DNA from: an uncultured Gemmatimonadota bacterium
Lineage (GTDB): Bacteria > SM23-81 > DAOVCL01
Direction: 5' to 3'
DNA: 60,606 bases
NCBI GenBank assembly: GCA_964626665.1
Contig: CAZVGK010000005.1
Location: 60,069-120,674, forward strand
Made by a program: the position numbers and the translations under genes. Below the pieces are notes generated by a model. That model did not search any database. It saw only the letters and a list, made by a program, of their open reading frames with translations, and was not told where the DNA came from. Below are positions 4,176 through 55,478 of this stretch, in pieces (within the stretch, counting starts at the first letter, position 1; each line of letters begins with the position of its first letter).

Positions 4176-5138
4176 AAGAATTTCATTAGCAAGGCTGTGG
4201 CACTCAAATTGAATTGTGTCCTTTTGGAGGATGTTCCTTCTCCGATAACGCACCTTTGTCTCTAACCTTTTGTTGAAGGCCGAGATAAGGACCTTTTTCC
4301 CCTCCTGGTTTAGGGTGATCCCATTCTTAATCTGGTTGAAGTGTTGCCTTTTCACCTCCCCTTTGCTGAAGAGGTAGAAGGTCGTCTTCTCCCCTAAGAT
4401 GCGGAAGGGTTCAATCAGGTCGAAGACCAGGGATTTCTTGTTATAGTTGTCGGTGTGGAGAAAACCGATATAGGGGTCCAATCCGGCCAGAATACAGGCT
4501 TTTTCCACCATTGAATAGAGAATCCCATAGCTATAGTTCAGCATTGCATTGAAGCCATCCTTGGCTGGCCGTTTGCTGCGTCCCTTGAATTTCCAGGCCT
4601 TGGGAATGAGATACGCCAGCGCTGTAAAATAGCTGCGTCCGGCACTTCCTTCGATCCCCATCAGGTTTCCCCTCTTCTCCCCCAAAGTTCCAGAGAGCCC
4701 TTTGACCTTCTCCTGGGCCACTCTCAAGCTCTTCAGGTAGGTTTCTATCTTCTCCGCCTTGGGTTCCCGGTGGCGCTTGAGGTCTTCCAGAAGCTGAATC
4801 TGGTTTTCTATCTTTCTCTCAATCCAGTCTGTTACTAAACTTAAGCCTTCCTCAGTTTCGGAGATCTCCAGTTGTCGCCTTCTGATTCTGGTGGTGGAGC
4901 CAAGCTTGGACTGCCAGACCCTGCCATAAGGGTTGCCAAAGCGGTCCAAGAAGACCACATCTATGTTGTGGTTCATTGCCAGTTCGATGGCATCAGAGGA
5001 AAAAGCAGCATAGGTGGTCACCAGGATGGACTGAACCTTGTGGACGGAGACCAGGCTCTTCTCATCGCCTACCTTTACCTGAAAGCAATCACCAGACTTG
5101 GACAGGTAAGCCCCGGGGGTATTCAGGACAAGTTGCAT
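4158..5138 (-). CDS. cas1: CRISPR-associated integrase Cas1
   Basis: LMGIEGSAGRSYF, NAMLNYSYGILY, GLDPYIGFLH, SLVFDLIEPFR motifs. Confidence 0.97.
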   Translation of the reverse strand: MQLVLNTPGAYLSKSGDCFQVKVGDEKSLVSVHKVQSILVTTYAAFSSDAIELAMNHNIDVVFLDRFGNPYGRVWQSKLGSTTRIRRRQLEISETEEGLSLVTDWIERKIENQIQLLEDLKRHREPKAEKIETYLKSLRVAQEKVKGLSGTLGEKRGNLMGIEGSAGRSYFTALAYLIPKAWKFKGRSKRPAKDGFNAMLNYSYGILYSMVEKACILAGLDPYIGFLHTDNYNKKSLVFDLIEPFRILGEKTTFYLFSKGEVKRQHFNQIKNGITLNQEGKKVLISAFNKRLETKVRYRRRNILQKDTIQFECHSLANEILRKDER

Positions 5139-42765: not shown

Positions 42766-42983
42766 AAATATACGAATCATTATTTTTAGACAGGATTGAC
42801 AGGATGATCAGGATAAATAAAACTCGTCCACAGTGTGCCGTCAGGAGTTACCTCCTGACGGCTCTTACAAATAGACGGGATGGACAGGATGAATAAAAAT
42901 CCAGTAAATCCTGTTTATCCCGTCAGAAAAGCTGGCACCGTAGGTGTGTGCTAAGGGAAGAAATGGTACTGGGAAAAAAGAGC

Positions 42984-43630: not shown

Positions 43631-46600
43631 ATGAGAATCGCTCTGAAGGTTGTTACATTAGCCTTTACCCTGGTGGGGTTGTTCTGGGCAGGTGCGAATT
43701 CGGCAATCATCTATGTCCCCACTGATCAGCCTACGATTCAGGCTGGCATAAATGCCGCCGGTTCCGGTGACACTGTCATTGTTGAACCGGGGACATACAC
43801 CGGTGCAGGTAACAGAGATCTTTCAACTTCCGGGAAAACTCTCTTACTAATGGGACAGTTTGGGGCGGACAGCACCATTACTTATTACCACCAATACTCT
43901 TCCCCAAATTATGCAATTAACGTAGATGGCATTGATGACTTCATCGAAGTACCTCATCATAGCAGTTTTGATTGGGATATGCAGCTAACAATGGAATTCT
44001 GGGTTAGAATATTTGATAATAGTTTTGGAATAATTTTTAATAAGTGCAGAGACAGCGTTGAAGATAAACAGGTCGGTCTTTACGATCCAGGCAAAATCTA
44101 CTTTTACTTGTATGGATTAAGTCATTCGGGTCAGCCAACTGTCTCAAATTCAGTAGTCAACCTTAATCAATGGTATCATATAACCTGTACTACAGATGGT
44201 GATTCACTATATATCTATATCAATGGGTATATAGATACTAGTATGGCTGCATCTGGGAATCCGATTGGCAATTCCACATACCCCGCCAGAATAGGTGCAC
44301 ATTTTTACCATTGGCCAACATATGTGCCTATAAATGGGGAGATCGATGAGTTGAGGATATGGAACATTTATAAGACTCCAGAAGATATTCAAGCCTTGAT
44401 GTATCATGAAGCATCAGGAAATGAGCCAAGCCTTGTTGCAGTCTGGCACTTTAATGAAGGCCAGGGGCAGACAGCACATGATTCCTCTCCTAATCAAAAC
44501 AATGGCAGGCTGGGAAGCTCAATTGGTGAGGATCCTGAGGATCCTCAATGGGTAATTTCGTCCGCCCCAATTGGGGGATCATTGCCTCCAGAGCCAAATA
44601 CTTTTGTGTCAACAGGACCTTCGCAAGGTGCCCACATAGACACGAATCGTGTCTCGTTCACTTGGACCGGCATCGACGACTCAACTGGTGCCGATGAATT
44701 GCTGTTCTCATACAGCCTCGACTCGGCTACCTTCAGCCCATTTAGCTACGATACTATGCATACGTTTACTGGGTTAGATGAAGGCTGGCACACGTTTATG
44801 GTGAGGGCGATGGATGAAGACCAGAATATAGATCCTACTCCTGCGACTCGCCACTTCGCCATAGATTTGACCTCTCCCAATACCGAAATTGTATCGGGTC
44901 CCTCAGAAGGAGAATGGGTTTCCAGTTCAACGGTAACTTTCGAGTGGACGGGGAGTGATAATCTGACTGAGGTGGAAAGTCTCCTTTTCTCATATAAGAT
45001 GGACGATGATCCGTTCAGTGATTTTACCCTCCAAACCAGCCACACATACAATGACCTGTCAGAAGGTCCACACACCTTTCTTGTCAAAGCCAAAGACAAG
45101 GCGGGGAATGTTGATGATACGCCCGCCCAGAGGAACTTCTCGATTGGCCTGTTAGACCTCCAGCCAGTGGACATCGTAGCTCCTGATTCCGCATTCTGTA
45201 ACCGGAAGATTGAGCTTTCCTGGACTGTCACCAATAATGGGATCGGACCTGCCGTGGGAACCTGGATGGACAAGATCTATCTTTCCGATGATGACCAGAT
45301 AGGCTCAGATACCTTACTGGGCAGCTTCCCGCATACGGATAGCCTTGACCCTGGCCAGAGCTATGGGGTGACAGATTCCGTTTTGCTACCGGACGGTATA
45401 CAGGAGGGCTATTGGATTGTGATGGGTTCAGAAGGAGGCAACTTCCTGATAGACGATGACTCAATAAGTGTATCCATCCCTCCCCATCCAGACCTTCAGG
45501 TTACCGATATTCAGGTGCCCGAGGATGGCTGGACAGGGCAGGCAATCGCAGTCCAATGGACCATAACCAACTCGGGCGATACCTCCGCTGAAATCAGTTG
45601 GAAAGAACATATTTACCTTTCCACCGATAGCATTGTCGGCTCAGATTCCTTAGTGACTACCTTCACCTATACCGAAGGATTAGAAGCCGGCTCAACCTAT
45701 ACGCACATCCACCCCGTACCTATCCCGCAAGATGCCCCTGGGGAGTACTGGATTGTAGTGCAGACTGACGGGCAAGACCAGGTTGGCGAATATGAGTCGG
45801 AAAACAACAACATTAGCATTTCGGATAGCTCGGTAACGATCCATCAAAGCCCTTATCCTGATCTGCGGACAGCTTCGGTGGAATGTGTGGACTCGGCCAC
45901 CAGTGGGCAGACCATTCCGGTAAGCTGGACGATCACCAACGACGGCGCAGGTGCTACCGATGCCCCGGTATGGTATGACCTGGTTTACCTCTCCCAAGAT
46001 ACCATCCTTGGTACTGGAGACTTCCCTTTGGGCAGTTTTCAGAATTTCAGCTACCTGGGGCCGGGTGACAGCTATCAGCAAACGAAGGAAGTTGTCTTGC
46101 CCTGGCAGTTAGCAGGGCCATATTATGTCTTGGTTTTTGCAGATGGCACCAATCGAGTCTCGGAGCATGTAGATGAGGGGAATAATGTAGGATCGAGTAC
46201 CACGCCAATCTTTATTACCTATGCTCAAGAGCCGGCTCCCGATCTGGAGGTAGTCCTTGACCAGGCCCCGGCGAATGGGTGGGCGGGTGCACAGATTACC
46301 GTGGAATGGACTGTCACAAACATCGGCAATGCCCCCGCAACCGGACATTGGCTTGTCGACTGGGTGATGCTATCCACGGATAGCATACCTCAAAGCGGAG
46401 ACCTGCACATTGGCCCCTATTATACCGGGGATGCTTTAGAGCCCGATTCCAGTTACTCCAGAACTGGCACTTTCAATCTGCCCAATGATTTGAATGGCAA
46501 CTACTACCTTTTCGTCTGGACCGATGTGCGGCTGGAATATCCCGATCCTGACCTGGGTAATAACTTCAGCGCCCCTGTTCCAATTTCTATTCTGCCAATT

Positions 46601-49600
46601 GTAGCAGACCTGGAGGTTACTGAAGTCTCCCTTTCAGACACAGCGGTTAACTCAGGAGATAAACTTGCCGTCGATTATACTGTCATTAATAACGGCCCAA
46701 CACCAACTGGGCCCTCATCATGGACTGACGCCATCTACATCTCCGAGGACGACACACTTGACCTCCAGGCGGACCTACTTTTAGGGAGCCATGGTTACAC
46801 GGGCAATCTTGAACTGGACAGCACGTACTGGCGTAGTGATACGGTGAGCATTCCGAATCAACTCTCAGGTTCCTATTACATTTTTGTCTACACCGATGTC
46901 AATGACAACGTGGAAGAGGGAGAGTGGGAAGGTAACAACGATACTCGCGCACTCGCGCCAGTGGAGGTCACATTTACCGCTCCGGACCTGCAAGTCACTG
47001 GCATCGCTCCCCCTTCCAGTGCCTGGTCTGGTCAGTTGGCTGATGTGGAGTGGACTGTAACGAATTTGGGACCGGGGCGCACGGCAGTGGAATCCTGGCA
47101 TGACAGGATATATCTCTCAGCAGATGACACACTCGAATTTGAGGAGGATTCATTACTTTATGACTACACCCGAACCGCAGCACTCGAACCGACTGGAGAC
47201 TACTATGCGGAAACTGTCGGTGTGGTAATGCCTGACGGCTTTTCCGGGGAATACTATCTTTTTGTGGTTACAGACGCAGATGACGCGGTTTTTGAAGACA
47301 CACTTGAAGATAACAATTCCGCCTTCGATTATGTTTCAATCACTTTGACACCGCCCCCGGACCTACAGGTGACGCAGTTTATCGTACCGGATTCGGGCCT
47401 AGCAGGATTTCCGATAAACATCCAGTGGGGGGTAGGTAACTTCGGCGAAGGCACAACAGGTGCCGGGTCATGGAAAGAACAAGTTTTCCTGTCGACCGAT
47501 ACAACCCATGATGTCTCAGGAGACACATTGCTTTATAGTCTCTTACACACGGAATCGTTGGCGGTCGGGGAAAGCTATATCGAGAGCCGGGATGTTATGT
47601 TACCGGATGACGACTCGGGCAGCTTTTATCTTAAAATCGTGACTGATGCTGAGGACGATGTCTACGAGCATCTTTACGAGTCAAACAACATCTCTGTGGA
47701 GCCGCTTCACCTGGCACTCCCCGATTCAAACGATCTACAGTTAGCCAATCTTACCTTGTCTGATTTTCAAGCCTCCGACTCTATTGTTGCTGGAGACACT
47801 TTTTCGGCCAACTGGACTGTAACTAACACCCGCCAGTTTCCGACCCCATCCTCCGTGAGATACTGGCTGGATGCCGTGTACCTGTCAGAGGATGCTGTGC
47901 TTGATATCGTGGAAGATTCTATGCTGGCTCAGTTCAGCCATTTTGGAGTTCTGGAGCCAGATAGCAGCTATAGCCGGGCGGAGATTGTGACTTGTCCCGA
48001 CGGCTTGATCGGCCAGTACTATCTGTTCATGGTTACGGACAGAACTGACTTAGTTGAAGAGACTAACGAGTCGGATAATTATACAGGTTTCAATACCGCC
48101 ATTGATTTACAGCCGCCAGATTTACTGGTGACTTCGGTGACCGCTCCCGATTCAACTGATGCCGGGCAACCGATCAGCCTCGGCTGGTCGGTGGCAAACC
48201 AGGGTATTGGTGCAACCAAAGTTTCATCCTGGTACGACGCTGTTCATCTTTCCACTGACCAGATCCTGGATGAAACTGACCATAACATCGGCTACTTGCA
48301 TCACGATGGGATTCTGGAGGCAGATTCTTCCTATAGTGCTAACCTTACTGGCGAAATCCCACCGGGATTATCGGGGCCATACTATGTGATAGTGAAGACT
48401 GACAAGAACGATGATGTTTACGAGCATAACAATGAGGGTAACAACTATACCCGGGCCCAGGATGCAGTTCAGATAGTATTGCCTGATCCGGCCAATCTAA
48501 TCGTTATGGAGATTACTGCTCCTGACAGCGCTATTGCCGGGGAAGAGCTCACCATAGGCTGGACGGTGAGGAACGAAGGCGCAAACGATGTAACCGGACA
48601 GTGGACGGATGCAGTTTATCTCTCCGCCGATACCGTATGGCAATACGATGACCCGTTAATCGGGACTCACCTGCACACAGGAACGCTCCTTGCCGGTGAG
48701 AGTCGCACTAAGGCAATTTCGCTATTTATTGAGGATTTCTTTGGCACCCTTGATGGCAATCTACCTGGAGTTGTCCTCGGTGACTACCATGTGATTGTCC
48801 GTACCGACATTCACAATAACATAAACGAGACTGACGAGATAGACAATTTGACTTGTTCGGATGACACGCTCATTGTCGATGTAAAAGAGCTTACATTGGG
48901 TGTGCCCGATACTTCGCAATTAAGCCATGGTGATGAGAACTACTACCGCGTTAATATTGGAGAAGATAATGACTTGAAATTGACTATCAACCCCCAGGAC
49001 CTGGACGATGTCTTCCGGGTTTACGTTCGTTTGGGTGACGTCCCCAACCAAATTGACTACGACTTCACCTACGAAGCAGACTCTTATCAAGCGACAGTAG
49101 TTCCGTGCAGGAGCCAGGAGATATGCTACCTATTGATACGGGGAGAATATGTGACTGGCTCCGGCGAATACATCCTTCTTGCCGACTCCGTATCATTCCA
49201 AATCCTTGAGGTAAATCCAGCGACAATAGGTAACGACGGGCAGGTAACAATAACCGTAGATGGCGCCGCATTCGATGACAGTGCTTCCTTGTCCTTAGAA
49301 GGACCTGACACCTTGGCGCCAAGTATCATGATCGTGGATAACAGCTCACAGATTACTGCGCTGTTCCGGCTGGATTCAGTAACCTTGGGGAACTATGATG
49401 TTGTGGTAACTAATGAGGACTCATGCAGCGCCTCGCTAGTCGATGGAATCATGATCGAAACACGGTCAGAACTGGATCCCATTCTAACGGTTGAGGGTCC
49501 AACCGCATTCAGGGTCAGTGATCAGCCAACCTACAATTGCACGATATACAATCCTAACAATGTTGACATTGAGTATCTGCGAATCTTTGTTTCCGTTGGT

Positions 49601-52339
49601 GATGAGAATGCCTTGGTAGACATTCCCGATAGTCCTTTTCCGCGAGTCTACTTTGATGGCGTATACGAAGACAATACAATCCTCGTTGAATCGAATGTTG
49701 TAAGGTCTGAGCTTCTCCTCTCCTTCCCGGCTGGTGGCAGCTTCAATTACCATGTGAGGATCAGCGGCTTTGGAGCCGATCCTTTTGGGATTGAGTTTCA
49801 GTGCATTGTAATCGATCCCGACACTCTTATTAACCGGTATAGTGCTTTCTCGGAGGAGCTACGGAGCGTAATGCTGACTTCGCCTGATTTTCTGAGTGCT
49901 TTGACGGCGGAAGAACGAGCGATCCTTGAGAATGAGGGCGATTGGAAACAACACTATGCGGGAATACTTGTTGCGCTCGGACTCCTCAATTCACAGGATG
50001 AGATGAAAGCCGCAGATGTCAACATGGGGAAAGATGTACGGTGTAAGAGTTCCTCATCGGACAAGCAGGTCCCTGATACCTACTGCAAGGTGCAATATGA
50101 GCACAAGGTTACTCAATGTTTGGTAAACCTTCTTGAGGATTTGCCCCATTACGTAATCGCTTGCTTCAGAGGCTTCTCTGATTGTATCGAAATGGAGTGG
50201 GAACTCGACAACGCTGGAGCCAAAGCTGCAAAAGATCTTGAAAAGGCAAGAACAGAGTACGTGGAGTGCATCAAGAAAGAATGCTGGACATCCATTTCTA
50301 GCGAACCCGACCGATGGTGTCTTGAAAGCCCATTACCTCCTGGCGATCCGGGATGGGGATATATAGAATGTCAGGACTATGTGGGAGATTATTACTCTGA
50401 TTCGTATTGCGCCCAACCTATGCGGAGTCGAGATCCAAATGAAAAGATTGGACCCACTGGATCGGACGAGGACAACTTAATAACCCTGCAACAGGCCTTG
50501 CCCTATACCATCTACTTTGAGAATCTCCCTGATGCAACCGCTCCAGCGGTTGACGTAAGCATAACCGACCAACTTGACTTAGACCTAGATTGGAGAAAAT
50601 TCAGGCTGGGTGAAATTACTTTTGGCGATACCGCGATTATTGTACCTGATAATCGCAGTTACTGGCACACAACTATCGATTTGGATCCCCTTGATCTTGT
50701 GCTTGAAATCGACGCCGGAATCAATGCTTTCGCAGGGGAAGCGCACTGGTATTTTAACACAATCGATCCTAACACCGGTCAACCACCGCTCGATCCATTC
50801 GCCGGATTCTTGCTGCCCAATGACACCACTGGACGTGGGGAGGGCCACGTGACCTTTACAATAAAAGCTAAAGGCGATCTCGTCGAGGGAACTGAAATCA
50901 CCAATAGCGCTACCATTGTCTTCGATACTAATGACCCGATTGAAACCAATGAAGTTGTGAATGTAATTTACACTCTGTTGCCCGATCTCTTGGTAGCTTC
51001 CGTGGGTATGCAATCCAGCGATTCCACCTTGATTCAAGGGAAGGAAGTTACCTTTAACTCAACTATTCAAAACCAAAGTGGAATAGAGTGTGGAACTTTC
51101 AATGTTTCCCTCTTTGATGCTCATCCCGATTCCGGTGGAGCTCAAATCGCCGGGCCAGAGGAAGTTCAGAGTATTCCCCCTAGTGGCACCCGAGAGATAG
51201 AGTTGACCTGGGCTCCGGCTCCCCCCTTTGGTGAGAGAACCCTCTATGTAGGAGTCGACCCCGAGAAGGCAGTTGAGGAAGCAAACGAAGTGAATAACAC
51301 TCGAAGTATAGATGTATTCGTCAGTGCCGACAGCATCGCTCCTTCTGTGCCAAGTCTTATCGCACCTTCAGATAGTGCTTGGCTGAATGATACGACAGTC
51401 ATCTTTAGCTGGGGCACAGTAACAAAGCTACCAGAAGGCCGTAAGAAGCGTCGTCGAGCTCTAGGTATACTCTCAGGGAGACAAAGCAACCCGATGGCGC
51501 CGATCAAATTGGAGGGATCTGAGAAAAACTCCTCTCCTGACGGTAAGGGGTCACCAGTAGAGTATGTTCTTCAGATTGACACCACAGATAACTTTACAAA
51601 TCCGTTGGTTGTTGATACTATCTCATCAGCCGTGGACACAGTCAATCTTATGGAAAATGAATATTACTGGCGAGTCCAGGCCTACGATTTGGCAGGTAAT
51701 GAGAGTGAATTTTCAGAGATATGGAGTTTTGAGGTTGATATAACTCCCCCTTCCATACCCCAAGGGCTTATGGCTGTTTCAGGGGATACCTGTGTAAACC
51801 TGTCTTGGAATGCTATCCCGGACGAAGACTTCAGCTATTATGCCATTTATAAAAGCAATACAAGCGGTTTCGACCCAGATACCTTAAACCCTCTGGGGAC
51901 GACCACAGACACAGTCTACAGCGATACTGCGGTCATCATTGGTACCACTTATTATTACCGTATTTCTGCCTCTGACTTCGCCGGCAATGAGAGCGAGTAT
52001 TCGAATGAGTCCGGTTGCCAGTATGTGGGTATCTACGGCATCACGGAGATGGAATTGCCCAAAACCTTCTCCCTCTCCCAAAATTACCCGAACCCCTTCA
52101 ACCCTGTCACCGTGATCAAGTATGCTTTGCCTAAAGATTGTTATGTAAAGCTCACCATCTACAATATCCTCGGACAAATGGTGGCGACTTTAGTTAATAG
52201 AAAGCAGGTTGCAGGCTACAAGTCAATCAGCTGGGATTCCAGAAACCAATCTGGCAATGAGGTAGCCAGCGGGATCTACTTTTATAGACTTAGGGCTGGA
52301 GATTTTGTGAAGACGAGGAAGATGATTCTGTTGAGATAG
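43631..52339 (+). CDS. Giant secreted protein (2902 aa): signal peptide, LamG, Ig-like, about 11 CARDB repeats, Cys-rich segment, DPNEK domain, FN3, C-terminal sorting domain
   Basis: GGAGG SD; GEIDELRIWN (LamG); repeated PDLxV...WTVTNxG...YLSxD units; QNYPNPFNP...ASGIYFYRL C-terminus. Confidence 0.9.
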   Translation: MRIALKVVTLAFTLVGLFWAGANSAIIYVPTDQPTIQAGINAAGSGDTVIVEPGTYTGAGNRDLSTSGKTLLLMGQFGADSTITYYHQYSSPNYAINVDGIDDFIEVPHHSSFDWDMQLTMEFWVRIFDNSFGIIFNKCRDSVEDKQVGLYDPGKIYFYLYGLSHSGQPTVSNSVVNLNQWYHITCTTDGDSLYIYINGYIDTSMAASGNPIGNSTYPARIGAHFYHWPTYVPINGEIDELRIWNIYKTPEDIQALMYHEASGNEPSLVAVWHFNEGQGQTAHDSSPNQNNGRLGSSIGEDPEDPQWVISSAPIGGSLPPEPNTFVSTGPSQGAHIDTNRVSFTWTGIDDSTGADELLFSYSLDSATFSPFSYDTMHTFTGLDEGWHTFMVRAMDEDQNIDPTPATRHFAIDLTSPNTEIVSGPSEGEWVSSSTVTFEWTGSDNLTEVESLLFSYKMDDDPFSDFTLQTSHTYNDLSEGPHTFLVKAKDKAGNVDDTPAQRNFSIGLLDLQPVDIVAPDSAFCNRKIELSWTVTNNGIGPAVGTWMDKIYLSDDDQIGSDTLLGSFPHTDSLDPGQSYGVTDSVLLPDGIQEGYWIVMGSEGGNFLIDDDSISVSIPPHPDLQVTDIQVPEDGWTGQAIAVQWTITNSGDTSAEISWKEHIYLSTDSIVGSDSLVTTFTYTEGLEAGSTYTHIHPVPIPQDAPGEYWIVVQTDGQDQVGEYESENNNISISDSSVTIHQSPYPDLRTASVECVDSATSGQTIPVSWTITNDGAGATDAPVWYDLVYLSQDTILGTGDFPLGSFQNFSYLGPGDSYQQTKEVVLPWQLAGPYYVLVFADGTNRVSEHVDEGNNVGSSTTPIFITYAQEPAPDLEVVLDQAPANGWAGAQITVEWTVTNIGNAPATGHWLVDWVMLSTDSIPQSGDLHIGPYYTGDALEPDSSYSRTGTFNLPNDLNGNYYLFVWTDVRLEYPDPDLGNNFSAPVPISILPIVADLEVTEVSLSDTAVNSGDKLAVDYTVINNGPTPTGPSSWTDAIYISEDDTLDLQADLLLGSHGYTGNLELDSTYWRSDTVSIPNQLSGSYYIFVYTDVNDNVEEGEWEGNNDTRALAPVEVTFTAPDLQVTGIAPPSSAWSGQLADVEWTVTNLGPGRTAVESWHDRIYLSADDTLEFEEDSLLYDYTRTAALEPTGDYYAETVGVVMPDGFSGEYYLFVVTDADDAVFEDTLEDNNSAFDYVSITLTPPPDLQVTQFIVPDSGLAGFPINIQWGVGNFGEGTTGAGSWKEQVFLSTDTTHDVSGDTLLYSLLHTESLAVGESYIESRDVMLPDDDSGSFYLKIVTDAEDDVYEHLYESNNISVEPLHLALPDSNDLQLANLTLSDFQASDSIVAGDTFSANWTVTNTRQFPTPSSVRYWLDAVYLSEDAVLDIVEDSMLAQFSHFGVLEPDSSYSRAEIVTCPDGLIGQYYLFMVTDRTDLVEETNESDNYTGFNTAIDLQPPDLLVTSVTAPDSTDAGQPISLGWSVANQGIGATKVSSWYDAVHLSTDQILDETDHNIGYLHHDGILEADSSYSANLTGEIPPGLSGPYYVIVKTDKNDDVYEHNNEGNNYTRAQDAVQIVLPDPANLIVMEITAPDSAIAGEELTIGWTVRNEGANDVTGQWTDAVYLSADTVWQYDDPLIGTHLHTGTLLAGESRTKAISLFIEDFFGTLDGNLPGVVLGDYHVIVRTDIHNNINETDEIDNLTCSDDTLIVDVKELTLGVPDTSQLSHGDENYYRVNIGEDNDLKLTINPQDLDDVFRVYVRLGDVPNQIDYDFTYEADSYQATVVPCRSQEICYLLIRGEYVTGSGEYILLADSVSFQILEVNPATIGNDGQVTITVDGAAFDDSASLSLEGPDTLAPSIMIVDNSSQITALFRLDSVTLGNYDVVVTNEDSCSASLVDGIMIETRSELDPILTVEGPTAFRVSDQPTYNCTIYNPNNVDIEYLRIFVSVGDENALVDIPDSPFPRVYFDGVYEDNTILVESNVVRSELLLSFPAGGSFNYHVRISGFGADPFGIEFQCIVIDPDTLINRYSAFSEELRSVMLTSPDFLSALTAEERAILENEGDWKQHYAGILVALGLLNSQDEMKAADVNMGKDVRCKSSSSDKQVPDTYCKVQYEHKVTQCLVNLLEDLPHYVIACFRGFSDCIEMEWELDNAGAKAAKDLEKARTEYVECIKKECWTSISSEPDRWCLESPLPPGDPGWGYIECQDYVGDYYSDSYCAQPMRSRDPNEKIGPTGSDEDNLITLQQALPYTIYFENLPDATAPAVDVSITDQLDLDLDWRKFRLGEITFGDTAIIVPDNRSYWHTTIDLDPLDLVLEIDAGINAFAGEAHWYFNTIDPNTGQPPLDPFAGFLLPNDTTGRGEGHVTFTIKAKGDLVEGTEITNSATIVFDTNDPIETNEVVNVIYTLLPDLLVASVGMQSSDSTLIQGKEVTFNSTIQNQSGIECGTFNVSLFDAHPDSGGAQIAGPEEVQSIPPSGTREIELTWAPAPPFGERTLYVGVDPEKAVEEANEVNNTRSIDVFVSADSIAPSVPSLIAPSDSAWLNDTTVIFSWGTVTKLPEGRKKRRRALGILSGRQSNPMAPIKLEGSEKNSSPDGKGSPVEYVLQIDTTDNFTNPLVVDTISSAVDTVNLMENEYYWRVQAYDLAGNESEFSEIWSFEVDITPPSIPQGLMAVSGDTCVNLSWNAIPDEDFSYYAIYKSNTSGFDPDTLNPLGTTTDTVYSDTAVIIGTTYYYRISASDFAGNESEYSNESGCQYVGIYGITEMELPKTFSLSQNYPNPFNPVTVIKYALPKDCYVKLTIYNILGQMVATLVNRKQVAGYKSISWDSRNQSGNEVASGIYFYRLRAGDFVKTRKMILLR

Positions 52340-52370
52340 TTCGGCTTGTAAAGCAGAGGTTGGAGGTGCT

Positions 52371-52408
52371 AAACTGCCGAAGGGTAACCTCTTCGGCAGT
52401 TTTTTTTT
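52371..52408 (+). terminator. Intrinsic terminator after the giant protein gene
   Basis: AACTGCCGAAG...CTTCGGCAGTT plus long T tract. Confidence 0.85.
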
Positions 52409-52741
52409 ATGGCTACCTTTTCTTGGGGGTGCATGTCCTTACTGCCTTTAATCTTCCCCTTCAAATTATGATGATAATCTGTGGGGACTTCTGGAGGGTG
52501 GTAACCTTAGGGGTTCTCAGTCAACTTTTCGTGTGAAATCCCTTGACTTTTTCCCTATCCTTTTATACTTTCGGAAGGCATCTATTTGAGGGGTGTAGGG
52601 GTTCAATTTATTGAATCTGTTTCCGAGCTTGATGAATCAAGCCCCTACAAAGGGAAACCCAATTTTAGGCGGTAGGACTTCACAGAACCAAAGAAGATAA
52701 TAGTGTGCTGTCAGGAGTTACCTCCTGACAGCCTTTGAGCT

Positions 52742-53389
52742 ATGCCACTGAGGAAAAAGGGGTTGCTTGGCAGAGAGGAGGGAATCTTTTTCTGCACAAC
52801 AGGCTTCCATAAACAGAGGAGATTGCTTTTAGGTGACAAGTATTATCGCATAATCCTGAAAAGCTTAGGATTCCTCAAACAGAAATATAACTTTGGGGTT
52901 ATAGCTTATGTTATAATGAGTTCACATGTGCACTTGATACTATTTGTGCAGAAGGGAACTACATTATCAGATATTATGCGCGATTTCAAGAAATTTACTG
53001 CTTACAAAATCAGAAAGCAGTTAGAAGAGGATAAAGAATTTGCCCTATTAAACTCACTAAGAATTGAAAGCTGTCAGGAGGTAACTCCTGACACCACAGG
53101 GAAGGAGGTAACTCCTGACACCACACAATCCTCTGTGCCGTGGGGAGTTACCTCCTGACGGAAGGAACAAAAATTTAAAATATGGGAAGACAGATTTGAT
53201 GATTTATATCTGAACCAAGAAAAAACTTTCTGGGTGAAGTTCAACTATATCCACAATAATCCAGTCAAGGCAGGGCTTGTTAAGCGACCTGAGGACTATC
53301 CATACTCTTCTGCCAGGAACTATTTTCTGAGGACAAGGGAAGGTGTTTTAGAAGTGGACATAGATTTTGTGTCAGGAGGTAACTCCTGA
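52742..53389 (+). mobile_element. REP-associated tyrosine transposase (RAYT, Y1 HUH family) interrupted by an in-frame TGA inside an internal REP hairpin
   Basis: AYVIMSSHVHL (HUH) and RDFKKFTA before the stop; in the same frame after TGA 53156-53158: IWEDRFDD...NYIHNNPVKAGLV..PEDYPYSSA. GTCAGGAGTTACCTCCTGAC-type palindromes at about 52710, 53073-53160 and 53371. Confidence 0.88.
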
Positions 53390-53453
53390 CACCACAGGGA
53401 AATGTCCGTGAATTCCCTTTTTTGTAGACCGGGTGAAAAAATAAGGAGGGGAG

Positions 53454-55478
53454 ATGCCTATAGTCGATTCCAAAACGGGAAAGGTAAGGAAAAATTATTC
53501 GGTTGAGGAGTTGAAGGAAGCTGCCAATCTAATGAGGGGGGTGAACCTGATTGCCCTTTGTGCGGCTGGATCTGGTCACTCTGGAGGAACCCTCTCGGTA
53601 ATGGATGTTACCGCTGCCCTTTACCTGAAGGTAGCTAATCATGATCCGCAAGATCCCTTCTGGGATGAGAGGGACAGGATAATCTGGTCCACTGGCCACA
53701 AGGCCCCCTCCCTCTATTTGGGTCTGGGTATAGCGGGTTATTTCGATGTGGAGGAGGTGGTAAAGCTACGCAAACTCTGGGCTCCCTTTCAGGGCCATCC
53801 CCATTGGCTGAAGCTCCCCGGAGTGGAGGCCTCTACCGGCTCATTGGGACAGGGATTGAGCATTGCAGTGGGGATTGCCCTGGCCGGAAAGCTAAATAAT
53901 AATGATTATACCGTTTATGCCCTTACAGGAGATGGGGAACACCAGGAGGGGCAGATCTGGGAAGCAATTATGGAGGCGGGGGACTATAAGTTCGACAATT
54001 TGATCAACATACTGGATAAGAATAGGCTCCAGATAGACGGTTGGGTAAAGGATGTGATGGATATAGAGCCCATAGCAGAGAAGTATAGAAGCTTCAAGTG
54101 GAATGTGATTGAAATCGACGGACACAAGATGGAGGAAATTCTCCAGGCATTAGAGGAGGCCAAATCCTTTAAGGGCAAGCCTACAGTGATCATCGCCCAT
54201 ACGGTAAAGGGCAAAGGCGTTGATTTTATGGAGGATGTTGCCGGCTGGCATGGCAAGGCCCCCAGCTATGAGCAGATGCTCAGCGGGTTGGAACAGCTTG
54301 GTTTAAAGGATAAGCTTGATGTGGAGAGGCTCCTGCAGAAGGCTGCAGACTACCAGAGCCAGGTAGATAAGAAATTAGCTGCCAAACAGCCCAAGTTCAG
54401 TAGGGATTATTTCTGGAACAAGGCCCCCAAGATGAAGGTGCAGATGGATCCCACCCGCAGGGGATTTGGGCGCGCCCTCGCGGAGAAGGGCGATGATGAG
54501 AGGGTTGTCTGTCTGGGCGCTGACATCTCAGGGTCTATAACCATTAGCCAATTCTATGAGGACCATCCAGCGAGGAGGGGCAGGTTCCTTAGTATGGGGA
54601 TTGCCGAACAGAGTGGGACTGGAGTGGCTGCTGGCCTAGCCAAGGAGGGAAAGATAGCCGTTTTTGGCACCTACGCTGTTTTTTCTGCTGGGAGGAATCT
54701 GGACCAACTGAGGACCACTGTCTGCTATGGGAACTTCAATGTGCTTATTGCCGGTGCTCATGGAGGGGTCTCTGTGGGCCCTGATGGGGCCACCCATCAG
54801 GCCTTAGAGGATCTGTTCCAGATTTGTGGGCTTCCCAATATGAAGGTTGTAGTCCCCTGCGATTCCATTGAGACAAAGAAGGCCACCGAATATCTGCTCT
54901 TTGAGATCAAGGCGCCAAAGTATATTAGGTTCGCCCGAGAGGCTACTCCAATTGTCACCCGGGAGGATACTCCCTTTGTTTTTGGCCAGGCCAATGTGAT
55001 CAGATACAGGGGGGAGAAGGAGAACTTCCTTGATGCCTTCCAGACCGTTTTGGCCTCGGAGTATTCCTCTGAGGGGGAGGATTTAAGCATAATTGCCTGT
55101 GGGCCGGAGGTTCCCGAAGCGATGAGAGCCGCTTACATCCTTAAGGAGGATTTTAATATAGAGACCAGGGTGATAGATATGCATACCCTCAAACCCCTGG
55201 ATAAGGAGACTATAGTAAAGGCAGCACTCGATACCGGGGTGATAGTGACAGCAGAGGAACATCAGGTAGGTGGTTTTGGTAACCTCATTGGTGCAGTGGT
55301 TTCTCAATCGCCTGAAGTTTACCAGAAAGGAGGGGCAATTGTGGGGATGATTGGAGTTAAGGATCGTTTCGGAGAATCAGGTCAGCCTTGGGAGCTGATC
55401 AAGGAGTTTGAGATCTCCGGTGAACACATTGCCCAGATGGCCAAAAAGCTGTTCGACGAAAAGAAAAGCCGCAGGTAA
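53454..55478 (+). CDS. tkt: Transketolase (single-chain fusion of N- and C-terminal halves)
   Basis: SGHSGG, QGHP, STGSLGQGLS, GDGEHQEG (TPP motif), GIAEQ, GPDGATHQ, EEHQ. Confidence 0.92.
   Translation: MPIVDSKTGKVRKNYSVEELKEAANLMRGVNLIALCAAGSGHSGGTLSVMDVTAALYLKVANHDPQDPFWDERDRIIWSTGHKAPSLYLGLGIAGYFDVEEVVKLRKLWAPFQGHPHWLKLPGVEASTGSLGQGLSIAVGIALAGKLNNNDYTVYALTGDGEHQEGQIWEAIMEAGDYKFDNLINILDKNRLQIDGWVKDVMDIEPIAEKYRSFKWNVIEIDGHKMEEILQALEEAKSFKGKPTVIIAHTVKGKGVDFMEDVAGWHGKAPSYEQMLSGLEQLGLKDKLDVERLLQKAADYQSQVDKKLAAKQPKFSRDYFWNKAPKMKVQMDPTRRGFGRALAEKGDDERVVCLGADISGSITISQFYEDHPARRGRFLSMGIAEQSGTGVAAGLAKEGKIAVFGTYAVFSAGRNLDQLRTTVCYGNFNVLIAGAHGGVSVGPDGATHQALEDLFQICGLPNMKVVVPCDSIETKKATEYLLFEIKAPKYIRFAREATPIVTREDTPFVFGQANVIRYRGEKENFLDAFQTVLASEYSSEGEDLSIIACGPEVPEAMRAAYILKEDFNIETRVIDMHTLKPLDKETIVKAALDTGVIVTAEEHQVGGFGNLIGAVVSQSPEVYQKGGAIVGMIGVKDRFGESGQPWELIKEFEISGEHIAQMAKKLFDEKKSRR

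Follow-up and report, generated by a model that had tools for sequence, protein, structure and literature searches.

A gene for a REP-associated tyrosine transposase (RAYT) in an uncultured Gemmatimonadota bacterium carries, in frame, a segment derived from its own REP hairpins, and it is closed early, within that segment, by a TGA codon where relatives have CGA. The gene lies in the 60,606-nucleotide stretch of DNA analysed here (the window). Our account, which we judge probable as a whole, is that of an old, translated, in-frame REP insert, followed by a point nonsense change that left a recent pseudogene. An earlier note on this DNA had taken the REP hairpin itself for the interruption, and had proposed either a recent self-inactivation or an autoregulatory switch relieved by DNA excision, RNA processing, readthrough or ribosomal bypass.

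The RAYT gene and its REP family

The gene is a single frame of 216 codons, counting the internal and the final TGA, and the internal TGA is its sole in-frame stop before the final one (Table 1). The read-through product matches the NCBIfam model NF047646 (REP_Tyr_transpos, 'REP-associated tyrosine transposase') with 106 bits at a cut-off of 80, and the IS200 model NF033573 with 31 bits, under its cut-off of 55; the Pfam match to Y1_Tnp (PF01797) corresponds to the N half of the gene. A search of the PDB with a profile of 46 homologues gave 4er8, the TnpA-REP of E. coli, as its sole match (E 2.6e-16). The fold was checked on the protein of an intact relative (G001, from a genome of the same genus), not on the broken gene of the window: the AlphaFold model (pLDDT 82.5) has 4er8_A as its top Foldseek match (E 1.2e-9, TMt 0.73), and IS200/IS605 transposases rank after it. 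The columns of H62/H64 and of Y169 are invariant or nearly so among the homologues and both align to 4er8, the YIHNNP of the window with the DYIYINP segment of the E. coli protein, in which Y115 is the catalytic residue and H59/H61 are the HUH histidines (PMC3479197). Judged by these sequence and fold matches, the gene is a RAYT (TnpA-REP, HUH/Y1), as had been proposed from the letters of the window, with its HUH motif before the internal stop and its catalytic-Tyr region after it. The genome of the host (3.17 Mb, 63 contigs) holds no close paralogue, its other Y1-type matches being at most 41% identical.

Table 1. Features of the RAYT locus (window coordinates)
Feature	Position	Strand	Basis
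REP hairpin on the 5' side of the gene, exact core; 12 nt separate it from the ATG	52710..52729	-	core match
Whole RAYT frame, 216 codons	52742..53389	+	ORF and NCBIfam NF047646 match of the read-through product
Truncated ORF, 138 aa, closed by the internal TGA	52742..53158	+	Pfam Y1_Tnp PF01797 match
HUH motif codons H62-V63-H64, upstream of the internal stop	52925..52933	+	sequence and homologue alignment
REP-derived in-frame segment, codons 110-139	53069..53158	+	missing in distant RAYTs; equivalent to 53071-53160
Internal REP 1, exact core	53073..53092	+	core match
Second internal REP, partial, with 2 mismatches; later copy of an in-frame tandem duplication of 27 nt	53100..53119	+	core match, spacing 27
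Inverted REP inside the gene, 2 mismatches; TGA in its 3' arm	53140..53159	-	core match
3' half, 76 codons, same frame, without further stop or frameshift	53159..53386	+	read-through frame
Catalytic Tyr169 codon in YIHNNP, downstream of the internal stop	53246-53248	+	read-through frame
3' flanking REP, exact core; codes for the last residues SGGNS and the final TGA (53387-53389)	53371..53390	+	core match

The repeat was followed through its 20-nt core, as the earlier note had named it. A scan of the window on both strands, with up to 2 mismatches, gave 10 strand-matches, against none in 100 shuffles, and in the genome the core is present in 33 exact copies and in 46 at 3 mismatches or fewer. 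The locus is thus a REPtron, a single-copy RAYT gene between inverted copies of a hairpin repeat dispersed in the genome, and the final stop of the gene does lie within a REP, as claimed. The usual genomic context of the repeat is ..CT[core]AGCACAC.. (consensus flanks ..gagCT[core]AGCACAC..), and neither a GTAG nor a GTGG tetranucleotide at the foot of the hairpin is found in the consensus flanks of the genomic copies. The lack of a GTAG foot does not exclude the gene from the RAYT superfamily, since tnpA-REP subclasses with atypical structures are described by Quentin et al. (2018, PMC6006769). None of 43 REP positions in the genome (up to 2 mismatches, internal RAYT copies included) falls within an open span that reaches 150 aa; among the spans holding a REP, the longest (139 aa) is the RAYT fragment itself.

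Several features of the repeat and its surroundings were observed along the way. About a dozen genomic REPs are nested in a conserved element of ~75 nt, ..gaggtctcc[a/t]gacctttcaagagct[core]agcacacttttgatcggcatcaggagatgc.. (for example at C7:23587, C26:15186 and C3:56040), whose outer parts are partly complementary, suggesting a nested, composite palindromic element. On one contig, three REPs (C18:41046, 41450 and 41771) have an identical 25-nt left flank and are spaced by 404 and 321 nt, and this sharing of flank and spacing suggests a tandem repeat unit that contains the REP. In the window, a further exact REP copy (42840-42859) precedes an ORF of 2902 aa (43631-52339, + strand), which lies immediately upstream of the REPtron and is followed at 52371-52402 by a terminator-like structure, made up of an inverted repeat with perfect 12-bp arms around a loop of 8 nt, and a T run. 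Finally, RAYTs merely 38-61% identical to that of the window (P0010, P0015, P0017, P0044 and P0045, and also P0024, P0040 and P0085) end in REP-encoded SGGNS or its variants, and the C-terminal tail of P0040 looks like the REP read in its other frame (RCQEQTPDT); from such endings in diverged proteins, the hairpin core seems to be kept across the RAYTs of many metagenomes.

A REP-derived segment kept in frame by relatives

The segment between the HUH and Tyr motifs is about 30 codons long when compared with an insert-less homologue (P0010), that is, 90 nt. The earlier description of it as exactly 90 nt, in frame and containing a stop holds for the length, the frame and the TGA (53156-53158), but the exact borders cannot be fixed, because 53069-53158 and 53071-53160 give an identical joined protein. 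Its outer REPs pair through arms of 27 nt (53073-53099 and 53133-53159, 85% complementary, with 33 nt between them) and enclose a third, partial REP (53100-53119), in agreement with what had first been noticed. The folding energy of this 100-nt stretch is -57 kcal/mol for RNA (z -7.2) and -27.8 kcal/mol for DNA (z -6.0), well below that of shuffles. The 27-nt duplication was seen by self-comparison alone, Tandem Repeats Finder giving no rows for 52950-53300.

The two flanks of the gene provide the closest counterparts of the two outer REPs. Positions 53072-53103 are identical at 32 of 32 letters to 53370-53401, which span the 3' flanking REP, the ACCACAGGGAA tail included; this tail is private to internal REP 1 and the 3' flank, and the other listed genomic copies have a tail of AGCAC type or a different one. 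The internal inverted REP, in turn, resembles the 5' flanking REP (88% identity over 26 nt). We infer that the insert consists of the 3'-flank REP, a spacer and the 5'-flank REP, a BIME/REPIN-like doublet from the gene's own REPtron. No empty-site allele of the segment was found.

A search of 5.8 billion proteins for homologues, together with the genome of G001, showed that the segment is not confined to the window. Five proteins (P0002-P0006; 205-229 aa, 69-86% identical, 96-100% coverage) and the 229-aa open frame of G001, which has no stop and 87-92% identity, carry the insert at the corresponding site, open and without loss of frame (69-92% identity over the six intact relatives). In these relatives it begins with a REP-encoded peptide of the CQEVTPDTT type and ends with PSGVTSRRK (PSGGNSRRK in P0004). 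A survey of RAYT homologues for in-frame REP inserts at this loop, which had been suggested as a check, thus has a positive outcome; the intact relatives came from a search of predicted proteins, which biases the sample toward open copies. The insert is absent from P0010 (~60% identical), from other aligned RAYTs (38-48%) and from G002, the 180-aa RAYT of a second genome of the genus. In a maximum-likelihood tree the window falls in a subclade of six rows, with P0002, P0003, P0004, G001 and L017 (support 94/98), while P0005 and P0006, which also bear the insert, branch outside it and P0010 lies further out. As six relatives carry the insert in an open state and the tree nests the window among them, the insert would be older than the stop.

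The length of the insert varies by in-frame repeat units: 27 nt in the window, 18 nt repeated five times in G001 and, from the protein alignment, ~8 residues per unit in P0005 and P0006. Since these lineage-specific units are all in frame, the reading frame has been preserved. In the G001 model, the insert (residues ~108-158) has a pLDDT of ~48-65 and no secondary structure, compared with more than 90 in the core, and it is flanked by a short helix and by the strand with the conserved W. On this model the insert is a disordered loop between the HUH and Tyr motifs, variable in length among relatives.

Searches at the level of DNA added few close copies. A scan of whole-genome contigs gave three loci, namely G001, a shortened copy (L014) and one 38% relative; a scan of metagenome contigs gave at least 80 loci, and among the matches listed the close ones are only L016, which is the window's own contig, and L017. 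A search with the insert only (residues 106-146), of low sensitivity, gave 5 candidates and 2 matches, P0007 (the window's own) and P0009. Among the close relatives listed, none has an insert-free allele.

Two further observations concern the relatives. The neighbours of the RAYT gene in G001 differ from those of the window copy (52339-53454), whereas L017 shares the downstream gene of the window, and the differing neighbours suggest that the REPtron or its surroundings moved within the genus. A 44% identical RAYT (P0033, 287 aa) has an insert of ~100 residues near the same loop, with CHEPLHD at both ends, which may be an independent in-frame repeat insertion.

The internal stop and the state of the gene

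The codon at 53156-53158 is TGA in the window and CGA (Arg) in G001, in L017 and in a contig of a relative from metagenome run X21, and by parsimony on these sequences Arg would be the ancestral state. The codons of the two arms read TCG ... CGA in G001 and L017, against TGG ... TGA in the window, the inverted REP of the two relatives having 8-nt arms that are perfectly complementary (GTCGGGAG / CTCCCGAC). The arms of the genomic consensus are GTCAGGAG / CTCCTGAC; compared with them, the relatives lose the stop by a T-to-C change, and the opposite arm has a corresponding A-to-G change that is silent in its Ser codon (TCA to TCG). This covariation, seen in 3 sequences and one contig, is probably a single event common by descent, and quasi-palindrome correction could have produced the compensatory pair without selection. 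At these two codons the window differs from the relatives, C-to-T giving a stop in place of Arg and C-to-G giving Trp in place of Ser, and the changes specific to its insert are CGA to TGA, TCG to TGG and AGG to AGC (R139stop, S134W and R110S). From this comparison the lesion is a single C-to-T nonsense change, not the REP insertion. The T at 53156 is also the base of the REP consensus, which in the frame used here spells TGA.

The history that we propose begins in the ancestor of the clade, where a doublet of the gene's own 3'- and 5'-flank REP variants would have joined the coding sequence. The doublet would have stayed in frame in the loop between HUH and Tyr, to be translated as in the relatives; the TGA that the REP brought along would have been lost (TGA to CGA), the change of TCA to TCG in the other arm preserving the pairing; and in the lineage of the window a single C-to-T would have made CGA a TGA again. 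Translation would now stop after residue 138 and yield a product without the last core beta-strand and the helix of Tyr169, which makes the enzyme most probably inactive.

Two other ways of reading the frame were discarded. An altered genetic code is ruled out by the use of TGA at the end of 437 of 1224 long open frames in the genome, where it is the commonest stop, which indicates the standard code. A split gene with a restart was rejected, as the only ATG close by (53182-53184) belongs to another frame, which is 6 codons long, and the in-frame GTG at 53234 comes only after the W motif.

The TGA allele is real and dominant in the natural population in at least two metagenome runs. Twenty-four runs are listed with the locus, 19 of them with at least half of its words and all in the form of contigs, and the contigs of four runs were compared with the window, rare variants dropping out of contigs. 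In X1 (depth ~120-130) and X16 (~28-29) the contigs over 52704-53101 and 53074-53399 are identical to the window, and the depth of any other letter at 53156 is zero. Given the equal depths and the 32-nt direct repeat between the pieces, the assembled order (N half, repeat, C half, repeat, flank) would be the only one to use each piece once. Contig L016 is likewise identical to the window at the locus. The relative's contig of X21 has 26 differences, among them T>C at 53156, G>C at 53142 and C>A at 53139.

As for the age of the lesion, a comparison of three sequences assigns to the branch of the window 8 replacement and 11 silent codon changes in the N half, and 2 replacements (both K to R, conservative) and 3 silent changes in the C half, with no indel. 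The downstream half has no further stop, frameshift or indel, as had been stated, and for this reason the inactivation looks recent. The crude branch ratios are ~0.19 (N half) and ~0.17 (C half), from small counts; the corresponding values are ~0.05 and ~0.08 in G001, whose gene is intact, and ~0.2 in L017, whose gene is frameshifted. A dN/dS of the 3' half had been put forward as a check, and the value obtained is consistent with recency; the intact 3' half and the branch ratios fit continued function via readthrough equally. The idea of a recent self-inactivation is in this way retained in its timing and lost in its cause, the REP insert being open in six relatives. The REP family shows no decay, with 33 of 46 copies exact; G001, with its intact gene, has 20 exact copies and 25 at 1 mismatch or fewer. 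Taken together, the gene is most probably a recent pseudogene with an inactive enzyme.

Other copies of the gene are broken as well. L017, which is syntenic with the window (the shared downstream gene starts with MPIVDSKTGKV, as read by eye), has lost 2 nt from its N half. L014 (680-1210) retains the N half and the insert, has a TAA directly after the REP unit and has lost the C half, an unrelated gene coming next, a structure that would fit a deletion running from the internal REP to the one on the 3' flank. P0008, P0009 and P0011 are partial copies. The gene upstream of L014 ends in REP-encoded SGVTS and a stop supplied by the REP, and the MAG of L014 is labelled Candidatus Stahlbacteria, a phylum label unlike those of the other relatives.

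Of the alternatives, a leaky stop deserves the most attention, though we consider it unlikely. Near-cognate readthrough of UGA-C with insertion of Trp would provide some full-length RAYT, and the gene would be attenuated rather than dead. The nucleotide after the internal stop is indeed C, and UGA-C terminates weakly in E. coli; the stop lies within a strong mRNA hairpin (-57 kcal/mol), the genome has one tRNA-Trp (cca), the REP copies are undecayed, and the 3' half keeps the same frame with no second lesion and conservative replacements. Recency by itself explains the intact 3' half, however, and the same TGA-C closes the gene normally, also in the relatives, TGA being moreover the commonest stop of long frames. 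The relatives have Arg, not Trp, at the codon, and a readthrough signal is neither known nor visible. Relief of the stop by readthrough, as first suggested, keeps a small probability, at a low level.

It is very unlikely that the truncated 138-aa product has a use of its own, for instance in binding REPs in the absence of nuclease activity. Its allele is dominant in at least two runs and it retains HUH along with the first three strands and helices, but it is without the last strand of the central sheet (E167-170 in the model) and the helix 174-190, which makes a stable fold doubtful, and among the listed proteins of the clade only P0007, the window's own, ends at this TGA.

We regard as highly improbable the switch of the earlier note, in which an uninterrupted enzyme would be restored by loss of the 90-nt REP doublet, either from DNA, through the RAYT or recombination, or from RNA, or else by ribosomal bypass. 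The doublet can fold on itself, its removal keeps the frame, and RAYTs cut at REPs in vitro (PMC3333891). Against this, the relatives retain and translate the segment, so that its removal is unnecessary for the enzyme, which argues against bypass too; a truncated enzyme without its Tyr would be unable to excise its own block; and, as already mentioned, the close relatives listed include no insert-free allele. The precise 90-nt deletion, proposed as a test, was sought in the contigs of the four runs, which cannot show rare variants, and neither a contig without the 90 nt nor a joint across them was present, leaving excision, RNA processing and bypass without support.

The chance that the TGA is a selenocysteine codon or an assembly error is negligible: aragorn reports a tRNA-SeC (tca) gene in the genome and assemblies break at the 32-nt repeat, but there is no SECIS-like fold (-6.9 kcal/mol for the 70 nt from the UGA onward, z -1.4), the relatives have Arg and not Cys, and the allele is found in error-free contigs at depths of ~130 and ~29 as well as in L016. 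The tRNA-SeC gene, at 4326-4426 of a genome contig, indicates that the genome probably uses selenocysteine somewhere; no tmRNA gene was reported by aragorn in the genome.

Known systems and meaning of the finding

The preferred account, an old translated insert later hit by a nonsense change, can be placed beside several published systems. The nearest in layout is subclass 2.4 of tnpA-REP (Bertels group 4), in which Quentin et al. (2018, BMC Genomics 19:475, PMC6006769) describe REPs inserted within the tnpA-REP genes. As in that description, the REPs of the window both flank the gene and lie inside it, in frame between HuH and Y and with variable length, a region that is modelled there as a peripheral extension. 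Of the signature given for the subclass (NH[IFV]H / WQ / YIxNNP), one of the three motifs fits the window (SHVH / WE / YIHNNP), and YIHNNP also fits the signature given for subclass 2.6. The window further differs from subclass 2.4, as presented in that paper, in having no GT[AG]G foot and in carrying a stop within the insert.

The E. coli TnpA-REP and its REPtron (4ER8; PMC3479197, PMC3333891) are the best match in sequence and fold, with an HUH motif and a single Tyr on helix alpha-D, and share with the window a single-copy gene, REP flanks and a dispersed REP family. Unlike the window, the E. coli REPtron of these accounts has no intragenic REP; its REPs are imperfect and GTAG-footed, BIMEs are present, and its protein is shorter, at 165 aa. 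That protein also has a C-terminal autoinhibitory tail with E161.

REPs inside coding sequences have been reported by Di Nocera et al. (2013, PMC3733652), whose account of 'REP-decorated proteins' also takes in the Rickettsia palindromic elements. As in those proteins, where in-frame REP dimers of ~20-30 residues in loops are judged neutral, the insert of the window is in frame; there too the ends of REPs often supply stops, and REPs overlap the ends of RAYT genes. The decorated genes that we found named there are repair, replication and RNA genes, not RAYT itself. For broken RAYTs, the closest case is that of Neisseria, with premature stops in the RAYTs and decay of REPINs after RAYT loss (Bertels-group preprint, bioRxiv 10.1101/2021.07.10.451892). 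According to that preprint the two cases share a single-copy RAYT, a small inactivating lesion and a repeat family that is still present, but in Neisseria the lesions are frameshifts and repeat decay is reported, whereas the window has a nonsense change in a REP-derived loop and no decay visible yet. In the article texts searched, we found no description of a stop inside an in-frame REP insert or of a compensatory arm pair.

The layout, a RAYT bearing its own REPs in frame, is therefore already published; the gene of the window shows it in a new host and is most likely a recently broken copy, and it opens no new mechanism. It adds an uncultured salt-marsh bacterium to the published class of such RAYTs. 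For annotation, the 138-aa ORF and the unannotated 3' half are to be treated as one RAYT pseudogene, not as a 'REP-disrupted' gene.

The clade would also present, at the level of single bases, a solution to a repeat that spells a stop: one change removes the stop and a silent change keeps the hairpin, an arrangement that is easily undone. A bolder reading, to which we give very little credence, is that the window shows the 'off' state of a fuse, in which a return to the REP consensus, by repair, gene conversion or RAYT-templated correction, spells TGA and stops the transposase, and the TCG...CGA pair restores it while keeping the hairpin recognised by the enzyme; if true, this would be a recurrent, reversible and self-limiting switch on the proliferation of REPs. 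As a gene that looks recently inactivated, among copies of its own repeat, the locus may provide a dated, natural starting point for the question of whether a REP family decays once its transposase dies.
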